A DNA stretch of 64,000 bases from contig JAHFOV010000003.1 of assembly GCA_023261505.1 (NCBI GenBank), forward strand, positions 3,911 through 67,910. Reading direction: 5' to 3'. This document shows, piece after piece, positions 9,282 to 63,050 of this stretch. Position numbers and translations under genes: made by a program. The first letter of the stretch is position 1. Every line of letters begins with the position of its first letter. The notes under the pieces were generated by a model. That model made no database searches, was not told the origin of the DNA, and saw only the letters and a program-made list of their open reading frames with translations. The stretch is from Planctomycetota bacterium (GTDB lineage: Bacteria; Planctomycetota; Brocadiia; Brocadiales; Bathyanammoxibiaceae).

Positions 9282-10664
9282 ATGAAGTATAAGGCATGGT
9301 TCCAGTGCAGCGCTGGCTGTGGTGAGCGGCATGGGCTGAATGAGATTGTGTATAATTGTAGTCGCTGCGGCGAGCTACTGGAGGTAGCCCACGATATTGA
9401 CGCACTCAAGCAGAGAAAGCCCACCGCATGGAAACGTCTCTTTAACCGCCGCTATATGCGCACTAACTGGCCTTATGGAAGTTCTGTTTGGGGAAAGAAA
9501 GAGCTGGTATGTCCCAATGTGGAGAATAAGAACATAGTCTCCCTTTATGAGGGAGGGAGTAACCTTTTCTGGGCAGAGCGCCTCGGCAGGGAGATAGGGT
9601 TAAAGGACCTCTGGCTAAAACAGTGTGGTAATGCCCATACTGGGTCATTTAAAGATCTAGGCATGACTGTGTTGGTCTCTATGGTCAGGCAGATGCTCTA
9701 CGAGGGGAAAGAAATCCTTGGGGTAGCATGTGCTTCCACAGGGGATACCTCTGCTGCCCTGGCTGCATATTGTGCGGCGGCAGGGATTCCGGCCATTGTG
9801 TTTTTACCTAAGGACAAGGTTTCCAGTTCCCAGTTAGTTCAGCCACTGGCCAACAACGCCTTAACCCTCTCTATAGACACTGATTTTGATGGATGCATGA
9901 AGCTGGTGAAGGAGTTATGTGCCAGAAATAATATCTACCTGGCCAACTCTATGAATTCCTTGAGGATTGAGGGCCAAAAGACTATAAGCATAGAGATTGC
10001 CCAACAGTTTGATTGGGATGTACCAGATTGGGTAATAGTTCCAGGGGGTAATTTAGGAAACGTCACGGCCCTTGGGTTGGGCTTCTTGATTATGAGAGAC
10101 CTTGGTATTGTGAATAAGATACCCAGGATTGCCTGCGCTCAGGCCCAGAAGGCCAATCCCCTCTATCTCAGTTATCTCAAGGAGTTCAAGGAGTATAAGC
10201 CTATCCAGGCCCAAAAGACCCTGGCCAGCGCCATACAAATAGGTAACCCTGTAAGCATAAAAAAGGCCATAAAGATTATTCAACTCTTTAATGGGGTAGT
10301 GGAGCAGGCCTCAGAGGATGAACTGGCAAACGCCGCAGCCAGGGCCGATCGTACTGGCCTGTTTAACTGCCCTCATACAGGCGTAGCCCTGGCCGCCTTG
10401 ATAAAACTACTAAAGAGAGGAGAGATAAAACCCGATGAAAGGGTAGTAGTTATCTCCACAGCCCACGGGTTGAAGTTCCCAGATTTTAAGATTCATTATC
10501 ACGAAGGAACCCTGGAGGAAGTAACACCCCTATACAAGAACGAACCAGTCGATGTTCCGGCTGATTACGAGACCGTAAGAGGTTCTATTCTCAGAGCCCT
10601 TGAAAAAGGGTTTTACGACTATAAACCTACAGTTAGGCCGGGGCGCACACTGATAAAGGACTAA
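9282..10664 (+). CDS. thrC: Threonine synthase with an N-terminal Cys4 zinc-ribbon
   Basis: PLP-lysine motif [10 protein letters not shown]. The N-terminus is [28 protein letters not shown] lies just upstream of ATG 9282, so the ORF-track TTG 9234 is probably an over-extension. Confidence 0.9.
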
Positions 10665-11041
10665 TGTACAGAACGCAGAGTGCTAACCTTGCTCTTACCG
10701 GTCTGGTGTTCTGCTGTGTGTCTAGACTCGGCAACCTTTTGTCTTTGTATCTTATCCTCTTTTGGGGGATGTTTTGCTAGCTCTTCCTCGTACTTCTTTA
10801 TGAGTTCTTCGTTATTATATCCAGGGCATAGCCCATGGCGCCACTTTTCTCTGGGATTGGAAAAGAATGCACATCGCTCTCCCAAGTTTAACTTACATCC
10901 ACTACATTTGCGAACAGGTTTTAGCCACTTTTCCATTGGTTCCTCTAAACAAAAAGTTCTAAATAATAACACCCCTACCTGTCCAATAAACAAAGGATAA
11001 CAGAAAAGAAGGATCTTGGCAAATCCTTTCTGGAATGACAC
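10661..11041 (-). CDS. Small Cys-rich hypothetical protein
   Basis: [44 protein letters not shown] followed by a Lys/Glu-rich tail. The internal ATG at 10936 is a plausible true start. The 3' end overlaps the thrC stop by 4 nt in convergent orientation. Confidence 0.4.
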
Positions 11042-11104
11042 AATTCTACCCTCTGGTTTAGAACCTTTATCTGGAAAAACCCAAGGTAGAATTCTTTCCG
11101 TCCC

Positions 11105-12160
11105 TTATTTCAGTTCTCTCCAAAGGGACTCTGGCATGTCGTAAGCAAGCTTCAATGACCCATCGGCACCGGCATAAACAGGCTCTTCTACCCTGGCAAC
11201 CTTGCCTCCCCCGTACTCCTGCAGGCCTTCTTCAACAACGCTATCGAGTCCCCTGATTTGACTCATACCCCCCGCCAGTATTACATTATTGAGAATGAGC
11301 TGTTGAAATTCGGGGTCATAAGTTGCAATGAGATTTCCAACCGCCTCAAGAATAGGAGGTACAATAGACTTGCAAGCTCGCCGACACTCCTCTGTAATGT
11401 CTAACGTCCTGGGTTTACCTCCTACGGGGACTCTTATTAATGTCCTATCAGTTGTATCTGTTACAAAACCATACTTTTCCTTTGCCTCCCTGACCATGTT
11501 GATAGTAAGCTGGGCTTCGGGATGGTTTTCCTTTATTAACTGTAAGAATAGCTCATCCACATAATCTCCTGCTGTAGTAAGGGTTATCTGGTCCCCTTCC
11601 TCCGGGAGGCTTCCATGCATACGGCACAGATCCACCGTTCCAGCACCAATGTCTATTATCAATGCATCCCCTAGCTTATCTAACCCATAGGCCACTGCAA
11701 AGGGTTCCGAGACTATCATCACAGAGTCTAGGGTCTCAGAAGCAGCTTCTATGAGAGACTGCTTATTGACCACGCTGGCCTGGGCTGGGGCACCAATGAC
11801 CCCATATACCTTCTGTCCCTCCCTAGCGTTAACTAATCCAACTACATGCTTCACCAGTTCCTTGGCAGCCGCTTTATAATTCTCAACCTCCTCCGGACCT
11901 GCCAGACTGGAATTGTCGGAATACTTAATAACTCCTTTTTCAAAGGGCCTTACCAGGTTCAACGCAAGACGTCGCTGCATGGCCTCGTTTCCGAAAACCA
12001 CTCTACTGCCCAGTAATTTCCTTGAAACCTCATCCTTGGGCCAACCCACTACACTTAATACCGTTTGTCGTAGACCGTTACTAGCCGTTATAGAGGTTTT
12101 GAAAGTCCCAAGGTCTATACCCAGAAATAATGCTTCACTATGCTCCCGTAACTCCGTCAT
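11105..12160 (-). CDS. MamK-like actin-family (ASKHA) filament protein
   Basis: LFLGIDLGT, VVGWPKDEV, VIGAPAQASVVNK, IVSEPFAVAYGLDKL, IIDIGAGTVDLCRMHGSLPEEGDQITLTTAGDYVDE, YDPEFQQLILNNVILAGGMSQIRGL and a C-terminal ..ESLWREL all track, block by block, my recollection of Magnetospirillum MamK. AGGAGGG lies 5 nt before ATG 12160, so the ORF-track ATG 12175 is likely too long. Confidence 0.8.
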   Translation of the reverse strand: MTELREHSEALFLGIDLGTFKTSITASNGLRQTVLSVVGWPKDEVSRKLLGSRVVFGNEAMQRRLALNLVRPFEKGVIKYSDNSSLAGPEEVENYKAAAKELVKHVVGLVNAREGQKVYGVIGAPAQASVVNKQSLIEAASETLDSVMIVSEPFAVAYGLDKLGDALIIDIGAGTVDLCRMHGSLPEEGDQITLTTAGDYVDELFLQLIKENHPEAQLTINMVREAKEKYGFVTDTTDRTLIRVPVGGKPRTLDITEECRRACKSIVPPILEAVGNLIATYDPEFQQLILNNVILAGGMSQIRGLDSVVEEGLQEYGGGKVARVEEPVYAGADGSLKLAYDMPESLWRELK

Positions 12161-12174
12161 ATTAACCCTCCTCA

Positions 12175-12846
12175 TTATTGACTACTGAGTTTTACGCTCC
12201 TGAGGTCCTCTGATTTATTCCCTCGCAGCTGAAGATTTTCCTTAATAATACCGTCAAAAAAGCCTCCTCTGTTTCCCGTCTGCCTTGTCTCCTTCTCCGC
12301 TTTATGCTTAACAACAGGAATGGCACTGTAAATGGAAGGCTGTAAACCTGCCTCTAGTCCTCTCAGAAGACTTTCTTCCAGGTTTCTGATAAATTCCATC
12401 GGGATATCCTTTGCCCCAAGGCTTTCTTTTGCCCGTTCTATGGCTTCACTTATCTTTTCCTTTAACTTTCCACCCCGATCCGCTTTCACCCCCATAGGCC
12501 TGGCATTTTCTGTCTTCTTTAAGACCTCCAGTTCCTTCCTCAATCTGGACACTTCAGCCTCCAGAGCTATGCGGGCCTCCTTTTCTTTATCCAATCTCAT
12601 TGCCACTAGTCCCTCTACGGTAAGGTTTATTAATTCTTCAAGACTCTTTTGACTTATTACTTTTAACTCTTTTATTCCTTGCTTTTTGAATTCCTTGAGG
12701 GTGACGCAGGATAACTTTTTCTGCTGGAGGGCCTCATAAATCCCTTTAGGGAACAGCCGTGCTACCCCCTCTGCTGATTGGGAGGAATTATCCTTCTCAA
12801 CTTCCATTATCTTGTCCTTCTTGTGGAGGGACTTTTTTGCTTTCAA
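12175..12846 (-). CDS. Coiled-coil protein translationally coupled to the MamK-like gene
   Basis: Its TAA overlaps the downstream ATG (TAATG). The central heptad-like segment is LDKEKEARIALEAEVSRLRKELEVLKK. The true start is probably ATG 12807 (MEVEKDN..), which has AAGGA 8 nt upstream. Confidence 0.6.
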   Translation of the reverse strand: MKAKKSLHKKDKIMEVEKDNSSQSAEGVARLFPKGIYEALQQKKLSCVTLKEFKKQGIKELKVISQKSLEELINLTVEGLVAMRLDKEKEARIALEAEVSRLRKELEVLKKTENARPMGVKADRGGKLKEKISEAIERAKESLGAKDIPMEFIRNLEESLLRGLEAGLQPSIYSAIPVVKHKAEKETRQTGNRGGFFDGIIKENLQLRGNKSEDLRSVKLSSQ

Positions 12847-12851
12847 AGCGA

Positions 12852-12880
12852 AGTTTACTATAACTTATTCTCATTGTCAA
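12852..12880 (-). promoter_or_regulatory. Candidate promoter TTGACA-N17-TAAACT for the coiled-coil/MamK-like operon
   Basis: On the minus strand, TTGACA is at 12880-12875 and TAAACT at 12857-12852, with a 17-nt spacer. Confidence 0.35.
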
Positions 12881-14713: not shown

Positions 14714-14742
14714 TTGACAGCTTTATTTCTTCATGCTAACAT
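14714..14742 (+). promoter_or_regulatory. Candidate promoter TTGACA-N17-TAACAT in front of the seven-gene operon
   Basis: TTGACA at 14714-14719 and TAACAT at 14737-14742. ATG 14751 lies 9 nt after the -10 box, which implies a near-leaderless first gene. Confidence 0.35.
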
Positions 14743-14750
14743 CGCCCACC

Positions 14751-15125
14751 ATGAGCTGGATACAACAAAGTCTTAAAAGGTTCAGAGAAGAAATGCGGCA
14801 AGCCTTTGCCATGGAAGGGAGGGAAGGTCTCACCGAGGAGGAGCGTGTCTTGCTAGAACGCATGGCTCAGGCCGTAGTCCGCCGTCGTATGGCCACCCCA
14901 GCTATACTGTTCCTGGAATCCCTAATGCCACTTAGTTATATTGGGAGCCAGGTCATGCACTTCCTCAGACCTTTCATGACCTTCCTCTTCTCACAGGAAG
15001 AATACGATAGACTGTCCCAGCTCCTTGAAAGACGTTCCACCATTGAGCACCTCATAGAGGCCATAAGGAGAGTTGAAGGCGGTAATCCGCCTCGGGCGGA
15101 GTGGCGAAAAAAAGATAATGGTTGA
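14751..15125 (+). CDS. Small hypothetical protein with a hydrophobic core segment (operon gene A)
   Basis: About 124 aa, with hydrophobic ATPAILFLESLMPLSYIGSQVMHFLRPFMTFLF flanked by charged helices. Its stop overlaps the next ATG (ATGGTTGA). Confidence 0.5.
   Translation: MSWIQQSLKRFREEMRQAFAMEGREGLTEEERVLLERMAQAVVRRRMATPAILFLESLMPLSYIGSQVMHFLRPFMTFLFSQEEYDRLSQLLERRSTIEHLIEAIRRVEGGNPPRAEWRKKDNG
15086..15100. repeat. 15-nt palindrome TCCGCCTCGGGCGGA (copy 2 of 4)
   Basis: Read directly from the sequence. It lies in the last codons of gene A, 18 nt before ATG 15118. Confidence 0.7.
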
Positions 15126-16908
15126 ACCCAAAGATCTTAAAGTAATCCTAGCTACCGACTGTGGTAGCACCACCACCAAAGCAATCCTTATAGAAAAAAA
15201 GGGGGAGGAATATAGGCAGACCTACCGTGGAGAGTCACCCACCACTGTGGAAGCCCCTTTTGAAGATGTCACTCGAGGGGCACTAAACGCCTTCGCAGAG
15301 TTGGAAGAGCTCTCTGGAAGGAAAATATTGGACGGAGAAAAGATTATAATGCCTGCCAGGGATAACGTGGGTGTGAACATCTATGTCTCTACTAGTAGCG
15401 CCGGTGGAGGGCTGCAGATGATGGTAGCCGGGGCAGTGAAGACTATGAGCGCCGAAAGTGCTCAAAGGGCCGCCCTGGGCGCCGGAGCTATTGTTACAGA
15501 TGTTATAGCCTCTAACGACAAAAGGCTCCCTCACGAGAGGATAGAGCTAATTCGGCAACACCGCCCTGACATGATACTCCTTTCGGGGGGGACGGACGGG
15601 GGTACTGTATCTCATGTTGTGGAACTGGCCGAACAAATCGCTGCCGCAAACCCTAAAGCTCGCCTTGGCACGACCTTCAAGCTACCTGTCCTTTATGCTG
15701 GAAATAAAGACGCAAGGGATATTATCAGTAAGGTGTTAGAAGAAAAAACCTACCTCCAGATAGCAGAAAACCTGCGCCCCACACTTGAGGCTGAAAACCT
15801 GATGCCAGCCCGACAAAAGATACAAGAACTCTTTTTGGAACATGTCATGGCCCATGCCCCTGGCTATAAGAAACTCATGACCTGGACCTCTACCCCAATA
15901 ATGCCCACTCCTGCGGCAGTAGGGGCAATCATAGAGAGCAAGGCAAAGAGAGACGGTATAAATATCGTGGGGGTGGATATCGGCGGCGCCACCACGGACG
16001 TATTCTCCGTCTTCGATGGCAACTTTACCAGAACGGTAAGTGCCAACCTGGGGCTTAGCTACAGCATCTCCAATGTCCTAGCCGAAGCAGGGGTGGAAAA
16101 CATACTCAGATGGATACCTTTTGATATGGATGAGGCAGACCTTCGCAATCGAGTAAAGAACAAGATGATACGACCAACTACAATACCTCAAACTCTGGAG
16201 GGGTTGCAGATGGAACAGGCCATTGCCAGGGAGGCCCTTCGTCTGGCTTTTGAACAACACAAGTCCTTGGCTGTAGGCCTGAAGGGTATCCAAAGGGTGA
16301 GGGACATCTCAGAGACCTTTAAAGAGGCAAAGGTGGAAACCCTGGTAGATATGCTGAAACTGGACCTCATCATTGGCAGCGGAGGGGTACTCTCTCATGC
16401 CCCCAGGCGCGCCCAGGCTGTGCTCATGCTTATAGATGCCTTCCTTCCAGAAGGCGTAACCCGGCTTGGAGTGGATAGCATCTTCATGATGCCTCACCTC
16501 GGAGTGCTATCATCCATACACCCAGAGGCTGCACAAGAAGTCTTTGAAAAAGATTGCCTCATTCCACTGGGAGCATGCCTGGCTGTCATCAACATAGGCA
16601 GGCTCGGTGAAAAATGCCTGGATATTAAAATACATTACCAAGACGGCAGAAAAATAGAGGAGAGCATCCCTTTTGGTGAATTGAAACTTTACCCCCTTGG
16701 TCCGAAGGAGGAAGCAGAGCTGGAGGCCCATCCCACCAGGCAATTTGACCTGGGTAAAGGCAAGGGCCATGCCCTAAAGACCAGGGTCCGTGGAGGCGTT
16801 GTTGGCCTTGTGGTAGACACTAGAGGAAGGCCCTTAAATATACCCAAAGACAAGGCCAAACGAATAGAACTCCTCAAGAGATGGGCTTCGGCCCTAGGGG
16901 CCTTTTGA
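15118..16908 (+). CDS. MutL/GlmL-family ASKHA ATPase (operon gene B)
   Basis: Two ASKHA phosphate-binding motifs, ILATDCGSTTTKAILI and VGVDIGGATTDVFSV, plus LLSGGTDGG. The protein resembles the glutamate-mutase accessory protein family. The start is taken at ATG 15118 (MVEPKDLKV..). Confidence 0.75.
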   Translation: MVEPKDLKVILATDCGSTTTKAILIEKKGEEYRQTYRGESPTTVEAPFEDVTRGALNAFAELEELSGRKILDGEKIIMPARDNVGVNIYVSTSSAGGGLQMMVAGAVKTMSAESAQRAALGAGAIVTDVIASNDKRLPHERIELIRQHRPDMILLSGGTDGGTVSHVVELAEQIAAANPKARLGTTFKLPVLYAGNKDARDIISKVLEEKTYLQIAENLRPTLEAENLMPARQKIQELFLEHVMAHAPGYKKLMTWTSTPIMPTPAAVGAIIESKAKRDGINIVGVDIGGATTDVFSVFDGNFTRTVSANLGLSYSISNVLAEAGVENILRWIPFDMDEADLRNRVKNKMIRPTTIPQTLEGLQMEQAIAREALRLAFEQHKSLAVGLKGIQRVRDISETFKEAKVETLVDMLKLDLIIGSGGVLSHAPRRAQAVLMLIDAFLPEGVTRLGVDSIFMMPHLGVLSSIHPEAAQEVFEKDCLIPLGACLAVINIGRLGEKCLDIKIHYQDGRKIEESIPFGELKLYPLGPKEEAELEAHPTRQFDLGKGKGHALKTRVRGGVVGLVVDTRGRPLNIPKDKAKRIELLKRWASALGAF

Positions 16909-16975
16909 ACTCTTAGGCCTTTAGAATTTATACTTTAATTCCTTTGAACTTTGAACCTTTAAACCCTTAAACTTT
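16909..16975. repeat. Degenerate 7-8-nt tandem array (CTTTGAA / CTTTAAA words)
   Basis: The sequence reads ..ggccttta gaattta tacttta attccttt gaacttt gaaccttt aaaccctt aaactttt and fills the whole B-C intergenic gap. Confidence 0.6.
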
Positions 16976-16981
16976 TTGTTT

Positions 16982-18103
16982 ATGGCCCACGCCTACACCC
17001 CAGGATTAAGAGTAGCCGAAAAGACAAAGATAAGGAAGGCCAGGGTGTTGCCCCTTCCCGGAGAGCTAGTAGTAAAAAAAGGGGACCGTGTAGAGGCGGA
17101 GGATGTCGTGGCCAGGACAGAACTCCCTGGGAAGGTCTTTTCCGTAAATGTGGCAGGACGACTGGGCATACCACCCGAGGAAGTGGTAAAATATATGATT
17201 AGAAAAGAGGGAGACCCTGTAGCAAAGGATGAAATCTTAGCCGAAAGTAAGTCCCTCCTTGCCTGGCTAAAGGCTACATGCACCTCCCCCATAAAAGGAA
17301 CAGTAGAGACCATATCAAATATAACAGGTCAGGTACTTTTAAGGGAACCACCTCAGCCCATAGAGGTCAGGGCCTATATTGGCGGGCGGGTGGTGGAGGT
17401 GATGGAAAAGGAGGGGGTTGTGGTGGAAACCACTGCCAGTTTTGTTCAAGGTATTTTCGGTGTAGGAGGGGAGGCGGTAGGTCTCCTGGAGATGGGTGTA
17501 AACTCCCCAGAGGAGGTGCTAGAACCTAAAGGGATAAGGCAAGAACATGAAGGAAAGATCCTTGTAGCTGGCTCATTGGTAACCTGGGAGGCTATGGATA
17601 AGGCTAGGAAGGCAGGGGTGAAAGGAATTGTCACGGGAGGGGTGTACGATGAGGATCTTAAAGCACTCCTGGGTTATGATCTGGGTGTGGCAATCACTGG
17701 TTCTGAGGAGATAGGGCTAACCCTGATAGTTACAGAAGGTTTCTCCAGGATTAATATGGCTAAAAAAACTTTCGAACTCCTCCAGTCAAAGCGTGGCATG
17801 AAGGCCTCCATAAATGGTGCCACTCAGATAAGGGCAGGTGTAGTACGCCCGGAGATAATTATCCCCCTTAATAAAGAGGCGACTGGAGAAGAAGAAACCC
17901 CTGCGGAAACGGGCATGACAATAGGAGATATGGTCAGGGTCATTAGAGAACCTCACTTTGGCAAAATAGGCAAGGTGAAGAGCCTCCCAGTAGAACTGCA
18001 AACGATTGAAACAGAGGCAAAGGTAAGGGTAGTGGAAATAGAACTGACCGAAGGCTCTACCATTTTAATTCCTAGAGCCAACGTGGAGGTGATTAAACTT
18101 TGA
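16982..18103 (+). CDS. Hybrid-barrel (lipoyl/EIIA-like) plus KOW-like protein (operon gene C)
   Basis: KKGDRVEAEDVVA and EGDPVAKDEILAE..TSPIKGTVETISNITGQVLL resemble barrel-sandwich hybrid motifs. The C-terminal IGDMVRVIREPHFGKIGKVKSL is KOW-like. No biotinyl AMKM motif is present. Confidence 0.6.
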   Translation: MAHAYTPGLRVAEKTKIRKARVLPLPGELVVKKGDRVEAEDVVARTELPGKVFSVNVAGRLGIPPEEVVKYMIRKEGDPVAKDEILAESKSLLAWLKATCTSPIKGTVETISNITGQVLLREPPQPIEVRAYIGGRVVEVMEKEGVVVETTASFVQGIFGVGGEAVGLLEMGVNSPEEVLEPKGIRQEHEGKILVAGSLVTWEAMDKARKAGVKGIVTGGVYDEDLKALLGYDLGVAITGSEEIGLTLIVTEGFSRINMAKKTFELLQSKRGMKASINGATQIRAGVVRPEIIIPLNKEATGEEETPAETGMTIGDMVRVIREPHFGKIGKVKSLPVELQTIETEAKVRVVEIELTEGSTILIPRANVEVIKL

Positions 18104-19377
18104 GACTTGGGGTGAGCCTAAACCCCAATCCGCCTCAGGCGGACAAGGGGGAAGCGAATCTATTGGGTAGACTTTTTTTGATAATTGTGTTAATGGGGAT
18201 TATTCAGCCTATAATTCCCCTTGGTGCCGCCGAACTGGTTCCTCCCGAAGGATTCAGGGCCTATGATACCCCATGGGATGGAGGGGAGTCAATTAGCCTA
18301 ACATGGCGTGTTTCTCCAAGCGAGTCCCCAGAGGTAAACTACATCATATACATAGCTAGCTCCCCCCAAGGGCCATGGATAGAGGCCATGAAGATAAGGT
18401 CAGATGCCTTTTACAAGACCGGTGCTCTTGAGCGGTTTGGTTTCCGCAAGAAGAGCAAGGACTTTCATGAACTACAGATAGACCCTAGACGCTATTTTGC
18501 TTCAGATAAAAACCGGCAGGCCATCTACTATTTTAAGCTAGCCACGGCCAGGGGGGAGGAGTTTGTACCAACAGAACAGGTGGTATCGGCCACGGCCAAG
18601 GGAAACTGGTTTAACATTTACAAGATAAACAACCTTATAATTATGATGGCCTTTTCAGGGGTGGTAATATTTTTCATAATCCATGCCAGGAGGAATCCCA
18701 ACCTCTTTTTACGGAAGATAAGCGGGCTGGATGCGGTAGACGAGGCCCTGGGCAGGGCCACAGAGATGGGTAGGCCAGTCCTCTTTGTTCATGGTCTAAC
18801 CAGCATGGGCAGCATATCCACTATGGCCGCCGTAAATATCCTGAGCCGTATAGCGCGCCGCATAGCTGAGTATGATGCTATATTAAAAGTAGTAAACAAT
18901 GACCCTATCGTCCTTTCAGTCAGCCAGGAGGTGGTCAAAGAGGCCTACCTTGAGGCTGGGCGCCCCGACGCTTATAACCCGGATTATGTGGTGATGGTTG
19001 CCTCGGAACAGTTCCCTTATGTGGCAGCGGTCAGTGGTATTATGACCAGAGAGCGGCCAGCGGCAAACTTCTTTATTGGCTATTTTTTTGCTGAGAGTCT
19101 TATCCTAGCAGAGACGGGTGCCGCCACAGGGGCCATTCAGATAGCCGGCACAGACGCTTATACCCAACTCCCTTTTTTTATAACTACCTGTGATTATACC
19201 CTTATGGGAGAAGAACTCTACGCCGCCAGCGCTTATCTGTCTAGAGAGCCTATGCTTTTAGGTACCCTCAGGGCACAGGACGTGGGCAAGGCCGCTATCA
19301 TAGTTATCCTCTTTTTTGGGACAATCCTTTCCAGCTTTGGTATACAGTTTGTCAGCCAGGTCTTTAGGGCATTTTAA
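18100..19377 (+). CDS. Membrane protein with signal peptide, FN3-like ectodomain and a large membrane-associated domain (operon gene D)
   Basis: The signal-like N-terminus is ..GRLFLIIVLMGIIQPIIPLGAA-ELV. The ectodomain contains ESISLTWRVSPSESPEVNYIIYIASS. There is a TM at LIIMMAFSGVVIFFII and a C-terminal TM. The start is ambiguous: either TTG 18100 (TTGA overlap with gene C) or TTG 18165. Confidence 0.6.
   Translation: MRLGVSLNPNPPQADKGEANLLGRLFLIIVLMGIIQPIIPLGAAELVPPEGFRAYDTPWDGGESISLTWRVSPSESPEVNYIIYIASSPQGPWIEAMKIRSDAFYKTGALERFGFRKKSKDFHELQIDPRRYFASDKNRQAIYYFKLATARGEEFVPTEQVVSATAKGNWFNIYKINNLIIMMAFSGVVIFFIIHARRNPNLFLRKISGLDAVDEALGRATEMGRPVLFVHGLTSMGSISTMAAVNILSRIARRIAEYDAILKVVNNDPIVLSVSQEVVKEAYLEAGRPDAYNPDYVVMVASEQFPYVAAVSGIMTRERPAANFFIGYFFAESLILAETGAATGAIQIAGTDAYTQLPFFITTCDYTLMGEELYAASAYLSREPMLLGTLRAQDVGKAAIIVILFFGTILSSFGIQFVSQVFRAF
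18129..18143. repeat. 15-nt palindrome TCCGCCTCAGGCGGA (copy 3 of 4)
   Basis: Read directly from the sequence. It lies between the gene C stop and the probable signal peptide of gene D. Confidence 0.7.
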
Positions 19378-19392
19378 CCCAGGAGGAACAAC

Positions 19393-20046
19393 TTGATCTT
19401 CTTGCGTCGAACTTTACCTTTAGCCATAGCATTTGTTATAGGAGTGCTTATGACCTTTCAATATTTTGTCCCACATCCCTACTCCAAGGCATTCCTGGAG
19501 CTAATGACCCGCTGGGATAGGATAATTGCAGGCTTTGCGGTGTTCATAGGGGTCTACAGCCTGTTCCACCTACACTGGACCCGCATCCGTAGAAAGGCGG
19601 CAGGATGGGGTTACAGTATCTTTGTCTTCCTGGGTGCATTTATTACCATTGCCTTTGGCCTTTATAATGGCGGGGAGGCCTTCTGGCACGATAAAAAAGA
19701 GGGCACCATGTTTGATTGGCTCTTCCTTTACATTCAGGTTCCGGCAGGGGCTACCATCTTTTCCATCCTTGCCTTCTTTATGGCCTCGGCAGCCTACCGA
19801 ACCTTCAGGGCCAGGACAGTAGAATCCACTGTACTGCTGCTAGCAGCTATAATTGTCATGCTGGGAAGGGTACCTGTTGGGGCCCTCATCTCTCAGTACA
19901 TCCCTTTAGCTGCAGACTGGATTATGGGGGTGCCAAATATGGCCGCCAAGCGGGGGATACTCCTGGGCGTTAGCCTCGGCGCCATTGCCACATCTATCAA
20001 GATTATCTTAGGTGTCGAAAGACAGTATCTGGGTGGAGGAGATTAA
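19393..20046 (+). CDS. Polytopic membrane protein, about 6 TM (operon gene E)
   Basis: AGGAGG lies 6 nt upstream of TTG 19393. I read six hydrophobic segments by eye. Confidence 0.65.
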   Translation: MIFLRRTLPLAIAFVIGVLMTFQYFVPHPYSKAFLELMTRWDRIIAGFAVFIGVYSLFHLHWTRIRRKAAGWGYSIFVFLGAFITIAFGLYNGGEAFWHDKKEGTMFDWLFLYIQVPAGATIFSILAFFMASAAYRTFRARTVESTVLLLAAIIVMLGRVPVGALISQYIPLAADWIMGVPNMAAKRGILLGVSLGAIATSIKIILGVERQYLGGGD

Positions 20047-31240: not shown

Positions 31241-31870
31241 ATGATAGATCCAGTACCAGTTGACACAATTATAAAAGGAATTTTAGAAGCTCCATTTGAA
31301 AGTCGTTCAGTGGAATTAAAGCCGTCTATCCCTTGGAACGACCTTAATCAGCAACAACAGCTTCAGGAAATTGTCAAATCAATCTTAGGAATGTCAAATA
31401 TAAAGGATGGTGGAAAAATAATTTTAGGTGTTAAGCAGAATCCAGATAAATCTTTTGAAATTGAAGGAATGGAAGAAAATCATTTAAAGACATACGATCA
31501 AGAGAAGATTTATCAAGATGTTAGAAATATTGGAGAACCAGAACCAAGATTTGAGATAAAGAATATGGAATATGGCGGTAAATGTTTTATTGTATTTTTA
31601 ATTCAAGAGTTTTTGTATTCTCCTATTATTTGTAGAAAGGATGGAAAAAATCTTGGAAAGGAACCCTTAGTTAAAGGGGCTTTATATATCAGAACGCACA
31701 AGCCTGAGACGAAAAAGGTAGATAATGAGACAGAAATGAGAGAGATTATTAACTTAGCTGTAGATAAAGAATTGGACCAGTTTCTAAAAAGAAAACAGCG
31801 ACTCGAGATTTCCAAAAGCTGGGAAGATGATAAAGAACAATTTTATGCAGAAATAAAAGACATCCTATGA
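31241..31870 (+). CDS. AlbA_2 (Schlafen-type divergent AAA/DNA-binding)-like domain protein
   Basis: ESRSVELKPSI..(25 aa)..ILGMSNIKDGGKIILGV fits the E..lEfK...AfaNt.GG.lliGv pattern. The gene is AT-rich. Confidence 0.5.
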   Translation: MIDPVPVDTIIKGILEAPFESRSVELKPSIPWNDLNQQQQLQEIVKSILGMSNIKDGGKIILGVKQNPDKSFEIEGMEENHLKTYDQEKIYQDVRNIGEPEPRFEIKNMEYGGKCFIVFLIQEFLYSPIICRKDGKNLGKEPLVKGALYIRTHKPETKKVDNETEMREIINLAVDKELDQFLKRKQRLEISKSWEDDKEQFYAEIKDIL

Positions 31871-32580
31871 ACCAAAAAGATAAAACCATAAACAAAATCA
31901 AATCAAAAGGATATTGGGTCATTAACATCCACCCAGAGGTTTATCAAGAAAAAAGAATTGAACAAAGAAGCAAAATTAAAGACGTTGTTCGTAATGCTGT
32001 GGTCGGTTTGCGCGGTTGGGATTATCCGCACTATTTTAGCGTTGGCGAGCATGAACCTTATATTATTGGAAACTGTATGGAAAGCTTTAAAGATTGGGAA
32101 AACCATATTGAATTTTGGAGGATGACTCAAAGCGCTAATTTTGTTCACTTACTAGCACTCAGAGAGGATTGGTCGGGTAATATCAAATATCAAAATGTTT
32201 GGGCACCTGGAGATAAGTCGACGGTGGAAAAAATACTGAGTGTGTTCAATACTTTATACACACTAACCGAAATTTTTGAATTTGCTAAACGTTTAGTGCA
32301 ACAGAACATTTTTGACCCAAATGTGGTAATTCAACTTACATTGTATGACCTTTTAGACCGTCATTTGCTTGCAGATTCATGGCCACGTATCATGCCCCAT
32401 GTTTCAAAAACATATAGCTGGCCATGGATTAATACTTATCCTGTGGAAGATATACTAAATAAAACTTATGAATTTGCTTTTGACGCTTTTAGAGACCTTA
32501 TAGACCTTTTTGGATGGGATAATCCACCCATAGATATGTTAAAAAACGAGCAACAGAAATTTGTGCAGGGAAAGATATAG
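31867..32580 (+). CDS. Hypothetical protein coupled to the AlbA_2-like gene
   Basis: ATGA overlap with the upstream gene. 237 aa, Trp-rich, with no recognisable motif. Confidence 0.5.
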   Translation: MNQKDKTINKIKSKGYWVINIHPEVYQEKRIEQRSKIKDVVRNAVVGLRGWDYPHYFSVGEHEPYIIGNCMESFKDWENHIEFWRMTQSANFVHLLALREDWSGNIKYQNVWAPGDKSTVEKILSVFNTLYTLTEIFEFAKRLVQQNIFDPNVVIQLTLYDLLDRHLLADSWPRIMPHVSKTYSWPWINTYPVEDILNKTYEFAFDAFRDLIDLFGWDNPPIDMLKNEQQKFVQGKI

Positions 32581-32775
32581 ATTATGCAAGTGGTTGAGTT
32601 ACTATTACATTCTTTTAGCACTTGCCCAATACTTTGAGAAATATATCGTTTAATAAGAAAAAGATAAATTTTTGCTTCTAAGCTACACAGTTATCTTTGA
32701 GCCACAGCCTGAGTGGGGCTACACAGTTGTAGCTGCTAAAGGATAAGGTCTTGGTGGGTCGGAAGTGCCGCTGCT

Positions 32776-34011
32776 TTAGTCTATATAATTCTTTACCATC
32801 CCGTGTTGTATTAGTACATTTGGGTTGTAATAGTATTGAGACGTTTGAAACTTTGAGGGTAGTAGGAGATACCTTCCGGGGCTACCGTCATTCCTTACAT
32901 AGAAGATAAAAGCGTAAGGGGGGAATATCCCTTCAGGGCATATCCATCCCCCGGTGTTCCATAGATTTATGTATTTTTTGCCTTTTTCTGTTTCTATAAA
33001 ACATTTCTGCCTGGAGGCCCCTATTCGGCCGCCAATATGGGTGTGACCACAGACGTAGTGAAACTCAATGTCTTGAGGGTCAGGTATAAGCTTCGGCACA
33101 TTGCACCTCTTTATAAACCAGGCAATATCTTCAGGTTCACGTTCGTCCACGCCCTGTGCGTCTATCTGATAGTACGTTCCAACATTTGAGGGCCAAATAC
33201 GGCTAGTTAAGGATTCTCTAACATTTTGATAAATCCCGTAAGGGTACAGGTAACCCCACTCCTTGATTAACCTCCATTGTCTTTTTATAAAATCTTCTTT
33301 AGCGCTGGTTCCCCAAAGCGTATAGATGATAGAATGGGCCATGGATTCAAGTTCTTCAACGTCACGGGCTTCCTTAATTCCCTTCTTGCCTCCCAGAACG
33401 AGGGAAGAGGTAAGATGGCCATGGTGGAACATATAGAAGTGATTTTTAACCTGGAAGCAGTAAAACGGATAAACCACCTTAGTATTATATGTGCTCTGGT
33501 AAGAGACAATCTTGAAGGGATTATTAGTAATAACGGAGTACTCAACATCCCACTTGCCATTCTTTTCAACAACCTTAAAGTTTGTTTTAAGACATTCGGA
33601 ATAAGGTTTGGGTTTATATTTTTCCTCTACTGCGTCGACCCAAAGTCCGTAGTCATGATTTCCTGGCACATAGACGACTGTCCCTATATCAAGCTTTGCC
33701 TTATCAAACGATTCCAATAGTGCCTTGACGTTCTCTCTCGAATCCCTGTAAGGCCCTTGTGCATCCTTACTTTCATCTAATATGAGGTCCAGGATGTCAC
33801 CCAAAAGGATAAGTTCATCAATTTTAGGCTCCTCAGTCCCTTTGTTTGAAGCTATATTCAATATAACATTGGTGAGGTCATCTATGGCATTATTGATTGG
33901 CGAGTTCAAATTTATTTTGTCTGGCGGGGCATTGTTAGGATTTTGATTGCAGAGGATGCTCGCATAAGCGCCAAGGTGCAAGTCTGAAAGGACTACCGCC
34001 TTTACCCCCAT
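32776..34011 (-). CDS. Calcineurin-like metallophosphoesterase (411 aa)
   Basis: Ordered metal-ligand motifs: VLSDLHLG (DxH), LLGDILD (GDxxD), VPGNHD (GNHD), FHHGH and CGHTHIGG (GHxH). AAGGAG lies upstream of the ATG. Confidence 0.75.
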   Translation of the reverse strand: MGVKAVVLSDLHLGAYASILCNQNPNNAPPDKINLNSPINNAIDDLTNVILNIASNKGTEEPKIDELILLGDILDLILDESKDAQGPYRDSRENVKALLESFDKAKLDIGTVVYVPGNHDYGLWVDAVEEKYKPKPYSECLKTNFKVVEKNGKWDVEYSVITNNPFKIVSYQSTYNTKVVYPFYCFQVKNHFYMFHHGHLTSSLVLGGKKGIKEARDVEELESMAHSIIYTLWGTSAKEDFIKRQWRLIKEWGYLYPYGIYQNVRESLTSRIWPSNVGTYYQIDAQGVDEREPEDIAWFIKRCNVPKLIPDPQDIEFHYVCGHTHIGGRIGASRQKCFIETEKGKKYINLWNTGGWICPEGIFPPYAFIFYVRNDGSPGRYLLLPSKFQTSQYYYNPNVLIQHGMVKNYID

Positions 34012-34123: not shown

Positions 34124-34200
34124 TGGTCACAGGTCACAAGGAACATGAAAAAGAGAAAATCTTTACTTAGTACCTGTTTCCTGTTTCCTGTCCCCTGTTG
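34124..34200. repeat. Heptamer array with inverted halves (GGTCACA... / ...CCTGTTT)
   Basis: tggtcac aggtcac aaggaac atgaaaa agagaaa atcttta cttagta cctgttt cctgttt cctgtcc cctgttg. The right half encodes the last 13 codons of fdhA. Confidence 0.7.
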
Positions 34201-36916
34201 ATACTTTTACTAATCTACCTTCTCCTACCCTCTCCACCCTTGCAGCGCAGACTTTGTACTCGGGGGTCATAGTGATGTTATCGTAGGCGCTTACGGTGAG
34301 GCGGTTGGCGGCAGCCTCGGCGTAGTGCATTGGCATCCAGATAACCCCTTCCTTTATGTCTACCACATGGGCCCTGGCCAGCACTTCTCCACGGCGAGAG
34401 ATTACCCTCACCACATCTCCATCTTGAACTCCATACATTGAGGCATCATAGGGGCTTATCTCCACAAAACATTCGGATTCCATCTGAGTGCACCCCGCAG
34501 AGCGGCGGCTCATAGTCCCCGCATTGTATTGGAAGAGGGTACGGCCTGTAGAAAGGATAAGGGGGAATTCACTGTCCGTCTTCTCTGCTGGTGGGCGGCA
34601 GGGCGGTGCATAGAACTGGCCTAATCCTCTAGCAAAGGTATCTTTGTGCAGGTACTGGGTGCCGGGATGGTCTTTAGTGGGACATGGCCACTGGATACCT
34701 ACCTTTTCTATCCTGTCGTAAGAAATGCCTCCAAAGAGGTTAGGTGCAAGAGAGGCCAGTTCGTCCCATATCTCACTGGGATGATTGTATTTCATAGGAT
34801 AACCCATCCTTGTTGCTAGCTCACATATAATCTGCCAGTCTGCCCTAGAGTTGCCTATGGGTTCCACGGCCTTTCTGACCCGCTGCACTCTCCGCTCGGA
34901 GTTGGTGAAGGTCCCGTCCTTCTCGGCGGCACTGGCTGCGGGAAGGATAACCTGGGCGTACTTTGCCGTCTCGTTCAGGAATATGTCCACTGCTACAACG
35001 AATTCCAGGTTCTTGAGTCCACTTATTATATGTTCCTGATTAGGCTGGCTCATGACAGGGTCTTCGCCCATGATGAAAAGGGCTTTAAGTTTTCCTTCAT
35101 TAGCGGCGTCAAACATCTCAGGGGACATTAGCCCCTTAATGGCGGGCAATTTAACCCCCCAGGCCTTCTCAAACTTCTCTCTTACCGCCCTGTCAGCTAC
35201 CAACTGGTATCCATGGAATTTGTCGGGTGTAGTACCCATATCTGTGGCACCCTGGACATTGTTCTGTCCTCTCAGGGGGTTCACACCTGAGCTAGGTTTT
35301 CCTATGTGCCCTGTAAGCATGGCAAGGTTGGCTATGGTGCGCACGGTTTCAGTACCGCAGACGTGCTCCGTTATTCCGAGGGTATAAAATATGGCGCCCT
35401 TATCCGCTTCGGCGTAAAGTCTTGCGGCCTCTTTAATATCCCTAGCTGGTACACCAGTTATCCTCTCGGCCTTCTCAGGGGTGATGTCTTTACAATATTC
35501 CTTAAGGGCCTCAAAGCCTTCTGTTCTATTGCGGATGAATTCCTTATCCTCCAGCCCCTCAGAGATAATGACATTCATTATGGCATTAAGGAGGATACAA
35601 TCTGTTCCTGGTCTTACCTGTAAGTGATAGTGTGCCCTCTCCGCCAGCCAGGTCTTTCTTGGGTCTACCACAATGAATTTGGCACCCCTCCGGAGGGCGG
35701 CCCGCATCTGTAGTCCTATAATAGGATGGGCCTCTGTGGGGTTGGCTCCAAGGAGGAAGAGTACATCGGCGGAGGGTATCTCCCCAATGGAATTGGTCAT
35801 AGACCCACTACCAAAGCTTGCGGCCAGACCGGCCACAGTGGGGGCGTGTCAGGTACGGGCGCACATATCCATGCTATTGGTTCCCACCACTGCACGGGCA
35901 AACTTCATCATCAAATAATTCTCTTCGTTTGTGCACCTGGCGGAACCAATGCAGGCTATGCTCTGGGAACCGTATTTTTCCTTGATTTCCAGTAATCTGG
36001 AGGCAACGAGGCTCATGGCCTCCTCCCAACTGGCCTCCTCCAATCTTCCACCTCTTCTTATCAGGGGCTCTGTGAGGCGGTCGGGATGATGGACAAAGTC
36101 GTATCCGAAGCGACCTTTTATACAGAGATTCCCATTATTGGGTACTGTGCCTACTTCTGAGGTCACTTTTACTAACTTGCCTGTATTTGTATTTACGTTC
36201 AGGAAGAGGTTACAGCCAACCCCACAATAGGCGCAGACGGTTTGCGTCTTTTTTAGCTCCCATGCCCTGCCCTTGCCTTCTGCCTGTTTTTCCCTAAGTG
36301 CCCCTACTGGACAGGTGGAAACGCACTGCCCACAGAACTCACAGGTGGTTCCCAATAGGGTATCGCCATAAGCCGGACCTACTACAGAATCGAAACCGCG
36401 GTTTATAAAGTCCAGGGCCTCAGCCTGTTCCACCTCATCACATATCCTGACACAGCGACCACAGAGGATACACTTAGAGTCATCCCTCAGTATCATGGTG
36501 TTTGGGTCTGGGACTATCCCTCTCTGCGGCTGTCTGAAGAAGCGGCTCTCTTTTATTCCATACTCATAGGCGAGGTCTTGCAGTGTACAGGTGCCACACT
36601 TATCGCAGGTCATGCAATCAAGGGGATGGTCAGAAAGGATGAGTTCCAGTATGAAACGGCGGGAATCCATGACCTTTTTGGTGTTAGTTCTGACCACCAT
36701 GCCTTCCTGTATCTCTGCGGAGCAGGCAGTCTGGAGGGTACGCGCCTTTTCCACCTCCACAAGGCATACCCTACATGCCCCAAAGGGTTTCAGCCTGGGG
36801 TCGTGGCATAGAGTGGGAATCTTTATACCTAAACGGCTAGCTACTTCTAGGATGGTCTGCCCTGGAGTGGCCTCTACTTGCCTATCATCAATAGTGAGCC
36901 TAATCTTCTGCACCAA
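34163..36916 (-). CDS. fdhA: Selenocysteine-containing formate dehydrogenase alpha subunit (NuoG-like Fe-S N-terminus plus molybdopterin domain)
   Basis: ORFs 35849..36916 and 34163..35836 are in frame across TGA (35851-35849): ..[30 protein letters not shown].., the canonical FDH Sec context. The N-terminus has 2Fe-2S (CHDPRLKPFGACRVCLVEV) and 4Fe-4S motifs. Confidence 0.9.
35804..35851 (-). promoter_or_regulatory. UGA(Sec) codon plus SECIS-like stem-loop
   Basis: Downstream RNA: lower stem CCCACU/AGUGGG (35842-35837 / 35809-35804), upper stem GUGGCC/GGCCGC with apical loop GGUCU (35830-35826). The loop begins 19 nt after the UGA. Confidence 0.65.
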
Positions 36917-60174: not shown

Positions 60175-61425
60175 TTAGGGTGGGCCCATTTCAAGATGGA
60201 CGTTTTTTTCTCCCACATACTTAGAATCCTTTTCAAGTAAAGATAGTATCCTCCGGGCGTAAGAAAAGTTATGAAGCCCATATTGCTCCAAATAATCTAA
60301 CAGTCCAGGGCTAGAAGCAGTTTCCTCTTCGCAGGTTCTTTCATTGACATTTACCCCTCTGTCCCTCCACATATAGGTCTGTGCAGGGGAAGCTAAGGTC
60401 TTTCTCAACCTGTCTAGGCAGGATAATATCGTGCCTCTTTGCGCAACAAGAAGTTCTGCATAATGTTTGTTATGACAGCGGGCACACTCCTCACCTACTT
60501 CCGAAAACCCCTTCCCTCCCTCTATGGTTTTATGGCAATCCTCACACTTCAGCACCCTTGACATCTTATCTGGAATGGGTGTGGTACCATTTAGAGGCAG
60601 CTTACCGCTAAAGAACTCGTAAACTGTCTGATGGCACTTATGACAATCTGCCTTTTCCTTGTGATGACACTGACTGCAGTTGACTTGATATTCCGCCACA
60701 CCTTTGGCCCTATCTTTCCTTGGAGGATGGCATTCCTGACAAGAGAGTTCAACCTCGGGATGTTGATAATGTAAAAATTCTGTGGTCCAGCCCAGATGAT
60801 TTATCTCGGCTGGCCTTGGGTAATAAGCCCTTTTTAATGACTCCTCATGGCATCCCTGGCAAGTTATGTGTGGCCTTGCGTGGTGGCATTTATCACAATT
60901 TACACCCTCTTTCATGCTGGCTCTGGCATTGGGCTGATGACATTCCCTGCAATCAATGTCACTATCTACACTAAAACCGTGAACGAAGGGTTCTCTCTTA
61001 TATTCCATAGGTTTTACATCAATATCTTTGTGACAGCGGGCACAACTCATGCCTCTGTTATCCACATGGTGGCAGCTAAGACAATCTTTTTTGTTAATAA
61101 TGAGCCTCCCATGGCCTTCTGTGTTAACTTCCTTATCTTCATGGCAGTCAACACAATGAAGTCCGATAACGGAAGGCTCGACTACAGGATTTTCTGCCTT
61201 GGGTCCGCCTGAAGCGGATCTCAAATCCAGGGTCACTGAATGGGTGTCATGCCGAAATACCTCCCCTTCAAAGTCGTTCTTATAAGAGAGGCTGTTGACG
61301 TGGCATCGGTCTGTGCAGTATGCGTCTCTCAAGTCAAGAAATAGAAAATCCAAGTCCGATCCCGTCACAGAGGAGTTCAAAGAAAATATAACAGCCAATA
61401 AAATAAGGACTATCCTTCTAGGCAT
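60175..61425 (-). CDS. Periplasmic multihaem cytochrome c (11 CxxCH plus one CxxxCH)
   Basis: Signal peptide, then the motifs CVDCH, CLSCH, CARCH, CRECH, CDKCH, CQGCH, CQECH, CSQCH, CHKCH, CEDCH and CARCH, plus CTDRCH. Confidence 0.9.
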   Translation of the reverse strand: MPRRIVLILLAVIFSLNSSVTGSDLDFLFLDLRDAYCTDRCHVNSLSYKNDFEGEVFRHDTHSVTLDLRSASGGPKAENPVVEPSVIGLHCVDCHEDKEVNTEGHGRLIINKKDCLSCHHVDNRGMSCARCHKDIDVKPMEYKREPFVHGFSVDSDIDCRECHQPNARASMKEGVNCDKCHHARPHITCQGCHEESLKRAYYPRPAEINHLGWTTEFLHYQHPEVELSCQECHPPRKDRAKGVAEYQVNCSQCHHKEKADCHKCHQTVYEFFSGKLPLNGTTPIPDKMSRVLKCEDCHKTIEGGKGFSEVGEECARCHNKHYAELLVAQRGTILSCLDRLRKTLASPAQTYMWRDRGVNVNERTCEEETASSPGLLDYLEQYGLHNFSYARRILSLLEKDSKYVGEKNVHLEMGPP

Positions 61426-61427
61426 CT

Positions 61428-62813: not shown

Positions 62814-63050
62814 GGGGCTGTGCGAAAACTAACAGGTAATTTAGTCCGATATAATTTGTTTAAATAAGACAGCTTTCTTTTTTCATTGGTTAGCTAGAAT
62901 GGACAAGTCATCTAATTTGCCCCTCTCCTTCGATGGGACGGGGAAGGGAAAGGGTTGGCATCGCCGCTTCTAACCGTTTGGCTGAACCAAAAGCCTTCTA
63001 CCATCAAGGAGGAGGGAATTTGGGTTGTCTTAACTTTTCATGAGATCTTA

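Follow-up and report, generated by a model that had tools for sequence, protein, structure and literature searches.

A MamK-family actin-like gene and its conserved coiled-coil partner, a probable cytoskeletal module away from magnetosome genes in Brocadiia DNA

What does an actin of the MamK family do in DNA where no other magnetosome gene is found? The question is raised by a stretch of 64,000 nucleotides, here called the window, from a Planctomycetota bacterium of the Brocadiia (contig JAHFOV010000003.1), in which a gene for a 351-residue actin-like protein directly follows, on the minus strand, a gene for a 210-residue coiled-coil protein. Our analysis indicates that the two genes probably constitute a chromosomal cytoskeletal module with a use other than magnetosomes, in which a MamK-type ATP-driven filament would be joined by a tethering adaptor. 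The actin gene, which is annotated correctly, belongs to a known and widespread family and is not novel itself; the novelty lies in the conserved family to which the coiled-coil partner belongs, in the C-terminal motif of that family and in its possible kinship with the magnetosome protein Mad11. The elements of the pair are as follows.

12852..12880, minus strand: sigma-70-like promoter-like site, TTGACA, 17-nucleotide spacer and TAAACT, agreeing with 10 of 12 consensus positions
12175..12807, minus strand: partner gene, encoding a 210-residue coiled-coil protein (NCBI hypothetical protein ACFYD3_00410)
12610..12705, minus strand: N-terminal motif of the partner, residues 35-66, VTLKEFKKQGIKELKVISQKSLEELINLTVEG, identified from alignments
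12508..12651, minus strand: central helix of the partner, residues 53-100, probably a coiled coil; predicted local distance difference test score (pLDDT) of the block 64-88
12220..12267, minus strand: C-terminal helix motif of the partner, residues 181-196, GGFFDGIIKENLQLRG, after a disordered linker
12161..12174, minus strand: intergenic spacer of 14 nucleotides, with the Shine-Dalgarno sequence AGGAGG at 12172-12167 that serves the actin gene
11105..12160, minus strand: gene for the MamK-family actin-like ATPase, 351 residues

The family of the actin-like protein is defined by profiles, solved structures and a predicted fold. It scores 433.2 bits against the NCBIfam MamK model NF040964 (cutoff 400) over residues 11-350, compared with 210.5 bits against the BeeR model NF053558, below its cutoff of 530, and 65 and 51 bits against two MreB models, both of which fail at cutoffs of 293 and 366. 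The generic Pfam MreB_Mbl model does match, at 76.6 bits; Alp7A_like_C remains under its cutoff (17.8 against 22 bits), and the FtsA model is likewise marginal. Among solved structures, phmmer places MamK first (5JYG/5LJV, expect value E 1.9e-80), followed by BeeR (4.6e-41) and MreB (3.7e-13). An AlphaFold2 model built from a 36-sequence alignment (pLDDT 90.9) has the MamK filament subunit 5LJV as its top Foldseek match in the PDB, with template modelling (TM) scores of 0.89/0.96 and a root-mean-square deviation of 1.7 Å, and the MamK entries 5LJV and 5LJW both rank ahead of BeeR and MreB. The first-pass annotation of this DNA had read the open reading frame (ORF) as tracking Magnetospirillum MamK block for block and as lying nearer to MamK than to MreB or ParM. 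All the blocks that it quoted are present and align, and the second part holds as well, the MamK model being passed and those of BeeR, MreB and ParM type failed.

The residues expected of an active ATPase are in place. D16 and G18 (within GIDLGT), E152 (within SEPF), D170 (within DIGAGT), G172, G174, T175 and D177, which bind nucleotide or take part in catalysis, are invariant in our alignments, as are the phosphate-binding loops, and E152 and D170 are equivalent to the catalytic E143 and D161 of the AMB-1 protein. An identical protein is deposited at NCBI as 'MamK family actin-like protein [Candidatus Hypogeohydataceae bacterium YC41]' (DBJWYO010000001.1, GCA_052360645.1). Ca. Hypogeohydataceae is classified in Planctomycetota, class Ca. 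Brocadiia, and a paper that names it describes new anammox bacterial groups from subsurface aquifers.

The gene boundaries can be drawn closely. The partner starts at ATG 12807, giving a protein that begins MEVEKDN, as all homologues and the NCBI gene model agree, and a TTG at 12846 is unsupported. The promoter sequence that had been read ahead of the pair, TTGACA-N17-TAAACT, is indeed found at 12880-12852 on the minus strand, about 45 nucleotides upstream of this ATG, and is a promoter by resemblance to the consensus. The actin gene starts at the second ATG, at 12160, preceded by AGGAGG and 6 nucleotides; the NCBI gene model concurs, and the same arrangement (GGAGG, 6-7 nucleotides, ATG) is present at the orthologous loci L001 and L002 of our sample, whose loci are cited by such handles where needed. 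With its start at 12160 behind AGGAGG, the actin gene is therefore 14 nucleotides from the partner gene and does not overlap it. The letters TAATG, which had suggested an overlapping junction, occur at 12177-12173, where the ATG falls within the spacer and would yield a protein of 356 rather than 351 residues. The two-gene unit with a coiled-coil protein first stands, with a long predicted helix at residues 53-100, and the overlap does not.

How the actin relates to other MamKs was examined in a neighbour-joining tree of 106 sequences (Kimura distances, 338 columns, 100 bootstraps, rooted on BeeR). One group holds 17 proteobacterial magnetosome MamKs, and another 29 sequences from Acidobacteriota, Rhodothermales, Desulfobulbaceae and others. 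The third, with 59 sequences and a bootstrap of 61, unites Planctomycetota proteins, deep-branching magnetotactic MamKs and the window protein, which sits in a Brocadiia subclade with a bootstrap of 100. MreB, ParM, FtsA and Mad28 are not in the tree and are set apart by scores against hidden Markov models (HMMs) and PDB entries only; from tree and scores together, the actin groups with MamK and not with MreB or ParM, the placement that had been foreseen. The window actin is about 40% identical to Magnetospirillum MamK and 50-55% identical to the MamKs of magnetotactic Omnitrophota, Desulfobacterota and Nitrospirota metagenome-assembled genomes (MAGs). Deep-branching MamKs are reported to be 35-38% identical to Magnetospirillum MamK, a value comparable with the ~40% of the window protein.

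The family is widely distributed. A homology search with the actin protein returns more than 5000 proteins at E <= 1e-10, of which the named ones among the best 120 are all from Planctomycetota, and a scan of one genome per species finds at least 261 MamK-family loci in Planctomycetota (including the cultured Limnoglobus roseus), Omnitrophota, Acidobacteriota, Rhodothermales, Desulfobacterota, Gammaproteobacteria and others. Published work agrees with this distribution. 'Saltatorellin', the MamK-like protein of Saltatorellus ferox Poly30, forms filaments in E. coli and M. gryphiswaldense, and one study places Saltatorellus under Planctomycetota. Phycisphaera mikurensis and strain Poly30 have MamK homologues and belong to Planctomycetota not known to be magnetotactic; their sequences served as 'Planctomycetota MamK' in an ancestral reconstruction, and the phrase 'planctobacterial MamK actin-ancestors' is in use. 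BeeR, which forms filaments in vitro, is likewise presented as a MamK relative in non-magnetotactic bacteria. MamK-family genes in non-magnetotactic Planctomycetota were already known from NCBI annotation, from 'saltatorellin' and from Awal 2023, and the surprise implied by the first-pass annotation at a MamK-like gene outside magnetosome clusters is not warranted.

A separate arrangement was observed in an amidase-linked MamK clade, where the MamK-family gene lies 0-50 nucleotides after a gene for an N-acetylmuramoyl-L-alanine amidase (Amidase_3) or slightly overlaps it. It comprises 27 loci (L041, L043, L048, L050, L051, L054, L055, L057, L059, L061, L062, L066, L067, L069-L075, L077-L079, L081, L082, L084 and L085) from Acidobacteriota, Rhodothermales, Desulfobulbaceae, Gammaproteobacteria, non-magnetotactic Nitrospirae, Gemmatimonadota and Schekmanbacteria. 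From the linkage a role in cell division or at the cell wall may be suspected, in a system separate from the Planctomycetota module.

What, then, is the protein encoded ahead of the actin? The partner has no Pfam or NCBIfam match, including none to ribbon-helix-helix or helix-turn-helix domains, and every database copy of it, like every copy of the proteins in the position of Mad11 discussed below, is annotated 'hypothetical protein'. Searches that start from the window partner give five homologues in one database, and a profile of the partner with five close homologues gives only eight matches among 1.84 billion representatives, because the family evolves too fast for so narrow a profile. Its breadth was assessed by position, from the ORF that ends just before the MamK-family gene at 85 loci. 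The upstream gene is the Amidase_3 gene at 27 of the 85, most of the second tree clade. At the remaining 58 loci, the window counted, 34 upstream proteins including that of the window form one BLAST cluster, smaller clusters come from Gemmataceae, Phycisphaerae and magnetotactic MAGs, and the partner family lies immediately upstream of the MamK-family gene in about 50 of the 58. Orthologues adjoin the actin gene upstream at both Brocadiia loci, L001 and L002, and the window partner, a divergent member of the family, is homologous to that of L002 (E 3e-8). Co-occurrence of the partner with MamK-like genes, proposed as a check on the pair, is thus conserved across many genomes.

Two short motifs are conserved in the protein. 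In the AlphaFold2 layout of the partner, the helix at residues 53-100 is followed by two shorter ones; residues 153-182 are disordered, and the last helix, at 183-196, coincides with the C-terminal motif. The sequence of the central helix is heptad-like when read directly from the translation. The N-terminal motif has a family consensus of about LKKKGVxxVxVLxxxxIxxLIExAV, and the BLAST links from the window partner to L031, L027 and L083 run through this segment. The C-terminal motif, [LM][LM]xx[IL]FxxN[LV]xL[RQ] preceded by roughly [KR][KR]x, is found in 48 upstream proteins by pattern and in three more by HMM; in its helix one Asn is invariant and acidic residues are common at set positions, and a basic KKK/RKK patch precedes it. 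The C-terminal motif is common to all partner subtypes and the N-terminal motif is confined to one cluster.

Profile searches recover the same association with the actin gene. A motif HMM trained on 41 non-magnetotactic sequences was run against all six-frame ORFs, 4150 in total, from the loci and the window. The 49 that score best all lie immediately upstream of a MamK-family gene, eight of them having been held out of training, in a background made up mostly of non-coding frames that flatter the contrast. One held-out match is an amidase C-terminus, and short amphipathic helices can match by composition. The window partner matches this HMM with E 1.5e-4. A full-length family HMM built without Brocadiia gives 1.3e-10 for L002, 7e-6 for L001 and 3.9e-4 for the window partner; its matches are collinear across two segments, the N-terminal motif and the C-terminal helix, and among the same 4150 ORFs it picks almost only those immediately upstream of MamK-family genes. 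The partner family, its C-terminal motif and the possible Mad11 kinship are not described in the searchable literature.

Relatives of the partner extend the family at its N-terminal end with GGDEF-like (4.9e-14), PilZ (1.8e-4) and PAS domains, which are Pfam-confirmed in L011, L038 and L010 and assigned by reading the sequence in the rest. Some Gemmataceae partners have hydrophobic, possibly membrane-spanning stretches.

L011:3-1034, L013, L023, L028 and L064: GGDEF-like N-terminal domains
L034, L037, L038 and L052: PilZ-like N-terminal domains
L010:2899-3873: PAS N-terminal domain

These domains hint that cyclic di-GMP (c-di-GMP) or other signals may regulate the filament system. The GGDEF signature in these proteins looks degenerate on direct reading.

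Among the other genes of the neighbourhoods only one recurs, for a ParA/MinD-like P-loop ATPase, and it is absent from the window. In about 10 loci of one Planctomycetota subclade it immediately precedes the partner gene and makes a three-gene unit (L012:2335-3102, L024:2233-3138 and about 8 further Planctomycetota loci). At L058, from a magnetotactic Nitrospirae MAG, a MinD-like gene (779-1675) and an SMC-like coiled-coil gene precede the gene in the Mad11 position.

The magnetotactic MAGs of the sample offer a possible counterpart of the partner. At their loci the ORF upstream of mamK encodes a coiled-coil protein of 157-173 residues with a C-terminal end such as LLNLIVEENKRLRG or FLQALVNENKALRDS. 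For Desulfovibrio strain FSS-1 the order mad11-mamK-mad10 has been published, and at L047 (8e-29) and L046 (2e-17) the ORF that directly follows mamK matches the Mad10 of BW-1, taken from a paper supplement. L047 also carries a MamN-like transporter, and the Omnitrophota locus L009 has a MamB-like cation diffusion facilitator transporter and FeoB directly before its partner-like ORF. On gene position, and on that only, we take the upstream proteins of the magnetotactic MAGs to be Mad11. Mad10 itself was rejected as a relative of the partner, BW-1 Mad10 matching nothing in the window.

Similarity between the two sets of proteins is suggestive but not proven. Applied to the proteins in the Mad11 position, the motif HMM gives E 0.003 for L047 and for L009 and 0.02 for L046, with L030, L058 and L065 at chance level; the family HMM gives 7e-9 for the L009 protein and 0.03-0.05 for L047 and L030. 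Alignment of the two families with hhalign returns a probability of 42% (E 2.6e-4) over the C-terminal 67 columns only. The reverse search, with a motif from five Mad11-position proteins, yields rank enrichment only, and amidase C-termini surface as well. With this search so weak and amidases among its matches, homology with Mad11 is therefore not claimed.

The surroundings of the pair are those of a housekeeping chromosome. It is flanked downstream by a convergent threonine-synthase-like PALP gene (thrC) and upstream by a divergent trpE, the two neighbours that had been named from the sequence. Within 10 kb on each side lie trpE, a MutL-type ATPase cluster, endonuclease III, purC, a DnaJ-TPR gene, ubiA, clpP and trigger factor. 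The remainder of the window contains purD, HtrA, topA, homoserine dehydrogenase, formate dehydrogenase, 2-oxoacid:ferredoxin oxidoreductase, dxs, lptD and multihaem cytochromes. The order of partner, actin and a small ORF beside thrC recurs in two other Brocadiia genomes, one of them labelled Ca. Bathyanammoxibius amoris, and at L001 trpE and the MutL cluster flank the pair too. In a tblastn search of the window with 22 magnetosome-cluster proteins, the trypsin domain of HtrA is the only match; homologues of MamB/M, I, L, Q, N and F, of Mad10 and of FeoB are absent from the 64 kb. The HtrA scores 233 against a MamE cutoff of 800, also falls below the MamO cutoff and has no CxxCH motif. The first reading, of a window free of mam, mms and mad genes and of an HtrA lacking magnetochrome motifs, is borne out by tblastn and family scans alike. 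The module is almost certainly not part of a magnetosome system, a conclusion that is strong and, with 64 kb of the genome searched, not absolute.

A mechanism can be proposed for the module. Partner and actin genes would be co-transcribed from one promoter and translated close together. The 351-residue protein would polymerise with ATP into MamK-type filaments, a property we expect because of its family membership, its MamK-filament-like fold, its intact catalytic residues and the filaments of saltatorellin. The 210-residue adaptor would probably dimerise through its central coiled coil, and its C-terminal amphipathic helix, with the invariant Asn and held on a flexible linker, would dock on the filament. 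The helix is proposed for this role because no other feature recurs in every partner subtype, and the actin is the one neighbour that all subtypes share. Its heptad pattern, M-I-N-L with Asn in an 'a' position, would also suit a short contact between helices. At the other end the N-terminal motif may engage a cargo or a regulator, and the GGDEF-like, PilZ and PAS extensions of the relatives at that end suggest signal input.

Several points weigh against this account. Binding of the actin through the C-terminal helix is something we infer from sequence. The AlphaFold2 model of the partner has an overall pLDDT of 54, at which only secondary structure is usable. The match of the window partner to its own family is modest (E ~1e-4 in a small database) and leans in part on transitivity via L002. 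Inner nodes of the neighbour-joining tree are weakly supported and its method is a simple one, so that the coarse picture alone is reliable, and the absence of magnetosome genes covers the 64-kb window, not the whole genome.

Of the other explanations, a reversal of the two ends of the adaptor is unlikely and nevertheless the most plausible. The C-terminal helix would then be a membrane-targeting sequence as in FtsA and MinD, the N-terminal motif would bind the filament, and the partner would anchor it to the membrane. A short amphipathic helix that follows a disordered linker, with a basic KKK/RKK patch before it, resembles known C-terminal membrane-targeting helices, and the hydrophobic, possibly membrane-spanning stretches of some Gemmataceae partners point the same way. 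An invariant Asn with acidic residues at fixed positions is, however, more typical of protein contact or of a short coiled coil, and an element present in all subtypes should match their common partner, the actin. A type II DNA-segregation cassette of the ParMRC kind, in which a ParR-like adaptor binds DNA and the actin pushes DNA apart, is very improbable. ParR binds the ParM filament, and an actin-like ATPase with a small adaptor that ends in a possibly filament-binding peptide fits that architecture; the ParA/MinD-like ATPase ahead of the pair in about 10 related loci would fit it too. We nonetheless rejected such a cassette: the pair occupies a chromosomal site whose synteny, with housekeeping genes around it, is conserved; near the promoter there is no array of iterons or centromere-like repeats; the partner matches no ribbon-helix-helix or helix-turn-helix DNA-binding domain; and the family of the actin is MamK rather than ParM or Alp7A.

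Slightly less probable again is chance adjacency, with an upstream ORF functionally unlinked to the actin. Coiled-coil proteins do align spuriously, and the window partner had only five to eight clear homologues in two very large databases; against this, order, orientation and tight spacing are kept in about 50 loci of very different genomes with varying surroundings, and the two collinear motifs that are conserved are not coiled coils. We give least credence to the pair being a displaced magnetosome fragment in a magnetotactic organism with its mam genes elsewhere in the genome. The actin passes the MamK model and is 50-55% identical to MamKs of magnetotactic Omnitrophota, Desulfobacterota and Nitrospirota, and the partner resembles the protein in the Mad11 position. 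Yet the 64 kb hold no other mam or mad homologue, the same thrC/trpE/MutL synteny occurs in other Brocadiia including Ca. Bathyanammoxibius, and the family is present in hundreds of non-magnetotactic genomes, with Phycisphaera mikurensis and Poly30 as examples from the literature. Of the two readings offered by the first-pass annotation, a dedicated filament with an adaptor that positions something other than magnetosomes fits the evidence; a remote piece of a magnetosome system does not, given the housekeeping synteny and the wide spread in Planctomycetota.

A broader and more tentative view extends the two-gene module to the magnetotactic loci. The partner and the Mad11-position proteins could be one ancient family, with the Asn-bearing helix as a universal docking peptide for this MamK clade; the pair would then predate magnetosomes or be independent of them, and magnetosome positioning would be one co-option. 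The target in Brocadiia could be the anammoxosome or a cell division that proceeds without FtsZ, with wiring to c-di-GMP elsewhere through GGDEF and PilZ domains. Planctomycetota lack FtsZ, and many have elaborate internal membranes; as a cytoskeletal system that might organise such cells, a MamK-type filament and its modular, conserved adaptor make a concrete and testable candidate. The pair also bears on the evolution of the magnetosome chain machinery. The shared C-terminal helix predicts, for magnetosome biology, that Mad11 docks on MamK by its last ~20 residues; Mad11 was not among the proteins tested in the published RS-1 two-hybrid study.

Two further features follow the actin gene.

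11032..11103, minus strand: RNA hairpin directly after the actin stop codon, an imperfect 28-nucleotide inverted repeat
10661..10936, minus strand: Cys-rich ORF of 91 residues with a CxxC...C...H..C pattern, between the hairpin and the threonine-synthase-like gene

The hairpin has a minimum free energy of -31.8 kcal/mol (z -3.2), and none of 200 shuffled sequences folds equally well. No U-tract follows it; it is therefore not a canonical intrinsic terminator, and its possible roles are to delimit the operon at its 3' end or to make the transcript more stable. The Cys-rich ORF is 62-84% identical to ORFs at the same position in L001 and L002, is absent from all other sampled loci, has no family match above threshold and carries a promoter-like site of its own at 11022-10994. 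It is a syntenic downstream neighbour in Brocadiia only, and its membership in the module is uncertain.

Elsewhere in the window four regions deserve mention. Beside trpE, 14733-20046 on the plus strand contains a second actin-fold ATPase, of MutL type (PF13941, 15073-16908), a DUF6754 protein and several ORFs without a family match; L001 shows synteny for the part with MutL and DUF6754. At 34163-36916 on the minus strand, a TGA at 35851-35849, in the context DMCART-U-HAPTVAGL, breaks the formate dehydrogenase alpha subunit into two in-frame ORFs; this TGA is almost certainly a selenocysteine codon and not the mark of a pseudogene. Three adjacent c-type cytochrome genes with 11, 10 and 3 CxxCH motifs occupy 60175-63845 on the minus strand, the first two matching cytochrome c7/c3-like families. 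The stretch 31241-34011 has a GC content of 0.41 against ~0.46 elsewhere and encodes a Schlafen/AlbA_2-domain protein, a metallophosphoesterase and, between the named genes of the stretch, one ORF that matches no family; a small insertion, foreign or of defence type, may account for it.

Comparison with known systems places the pair among several relatives. With Magnetospirillum MamK (5LJV, 5LJW, 5JYG) the window actin shares the NF040964 family, the fold, the ATP-binding and catalytic residues and the C-terminal W(R/K)EL tail, but it has no magnetosome cluster around it and falls in a different clade from the proteobacterial MamKs. Saltatorellin and the Phycisphaera mikurensis homologue are likewise actins nearest to MamK, in hosts in or near Planctomycetota not known to make magnetosomes. 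The C-terminal tails are similar (YWEQLK in saltatorellin, from a published primer, and LWRELK in the window), and the orthology of window protein and saltatorellin that we suppose draws on family-level evidence only. No partner gene for saltatorellin or the Phycisphaera homologue was found described in the searchable literature.

BeeR of Verrucomicrobiota (8R2N) is more distant, at ~30-33% identity, and has a disordered N-terminal domain of ~35 residues that the window protein lacks, its model showing only 6-9 unstructured N-terminal residues. Both are MamK-related actins; the hosts of BeeR are non-magnetotactic bacteria of the Planctomycetes-Verrucomicrobia-Chlamydiae (PVC) group, and BeeR is the second-best structural match after the MamK entries. 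A MamJ-like nature of the partner, with an acidic repetitive domain and a Gly-rich hydrophobic C-terminus, was rejected: the MamJ-like proteins encoded ahead of mamK at L088 and L089 bear no resemblance to it and do not have its C-terminal motif, and MamJ-like proteins, which occur in Magnetospirillum-type and Magnetococcales loci, are unrelated to the partner. The pair differs from ParM/ParR and MamK/MamJ in that its partner has no sequence kinship to ParR or MamJ, no centromere-like site is present and the adaptor gene comes first; what it would share with them is a dynamic actin-like filament and an adjacently encoded small adaptor that couples it to cargo. From the mad11-mamK-mad10 unit of Desulfobacterota, Nitrospirota and Omnitrophota it is set apart by the unrelated N-terminal half of the partner and by a window without Mad10, FeoB or MamB neighbours. 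The MamKs of that unit are nevertheless the closest magnetotactic relatives of the window actin and stand with it in the same clade of the tree.

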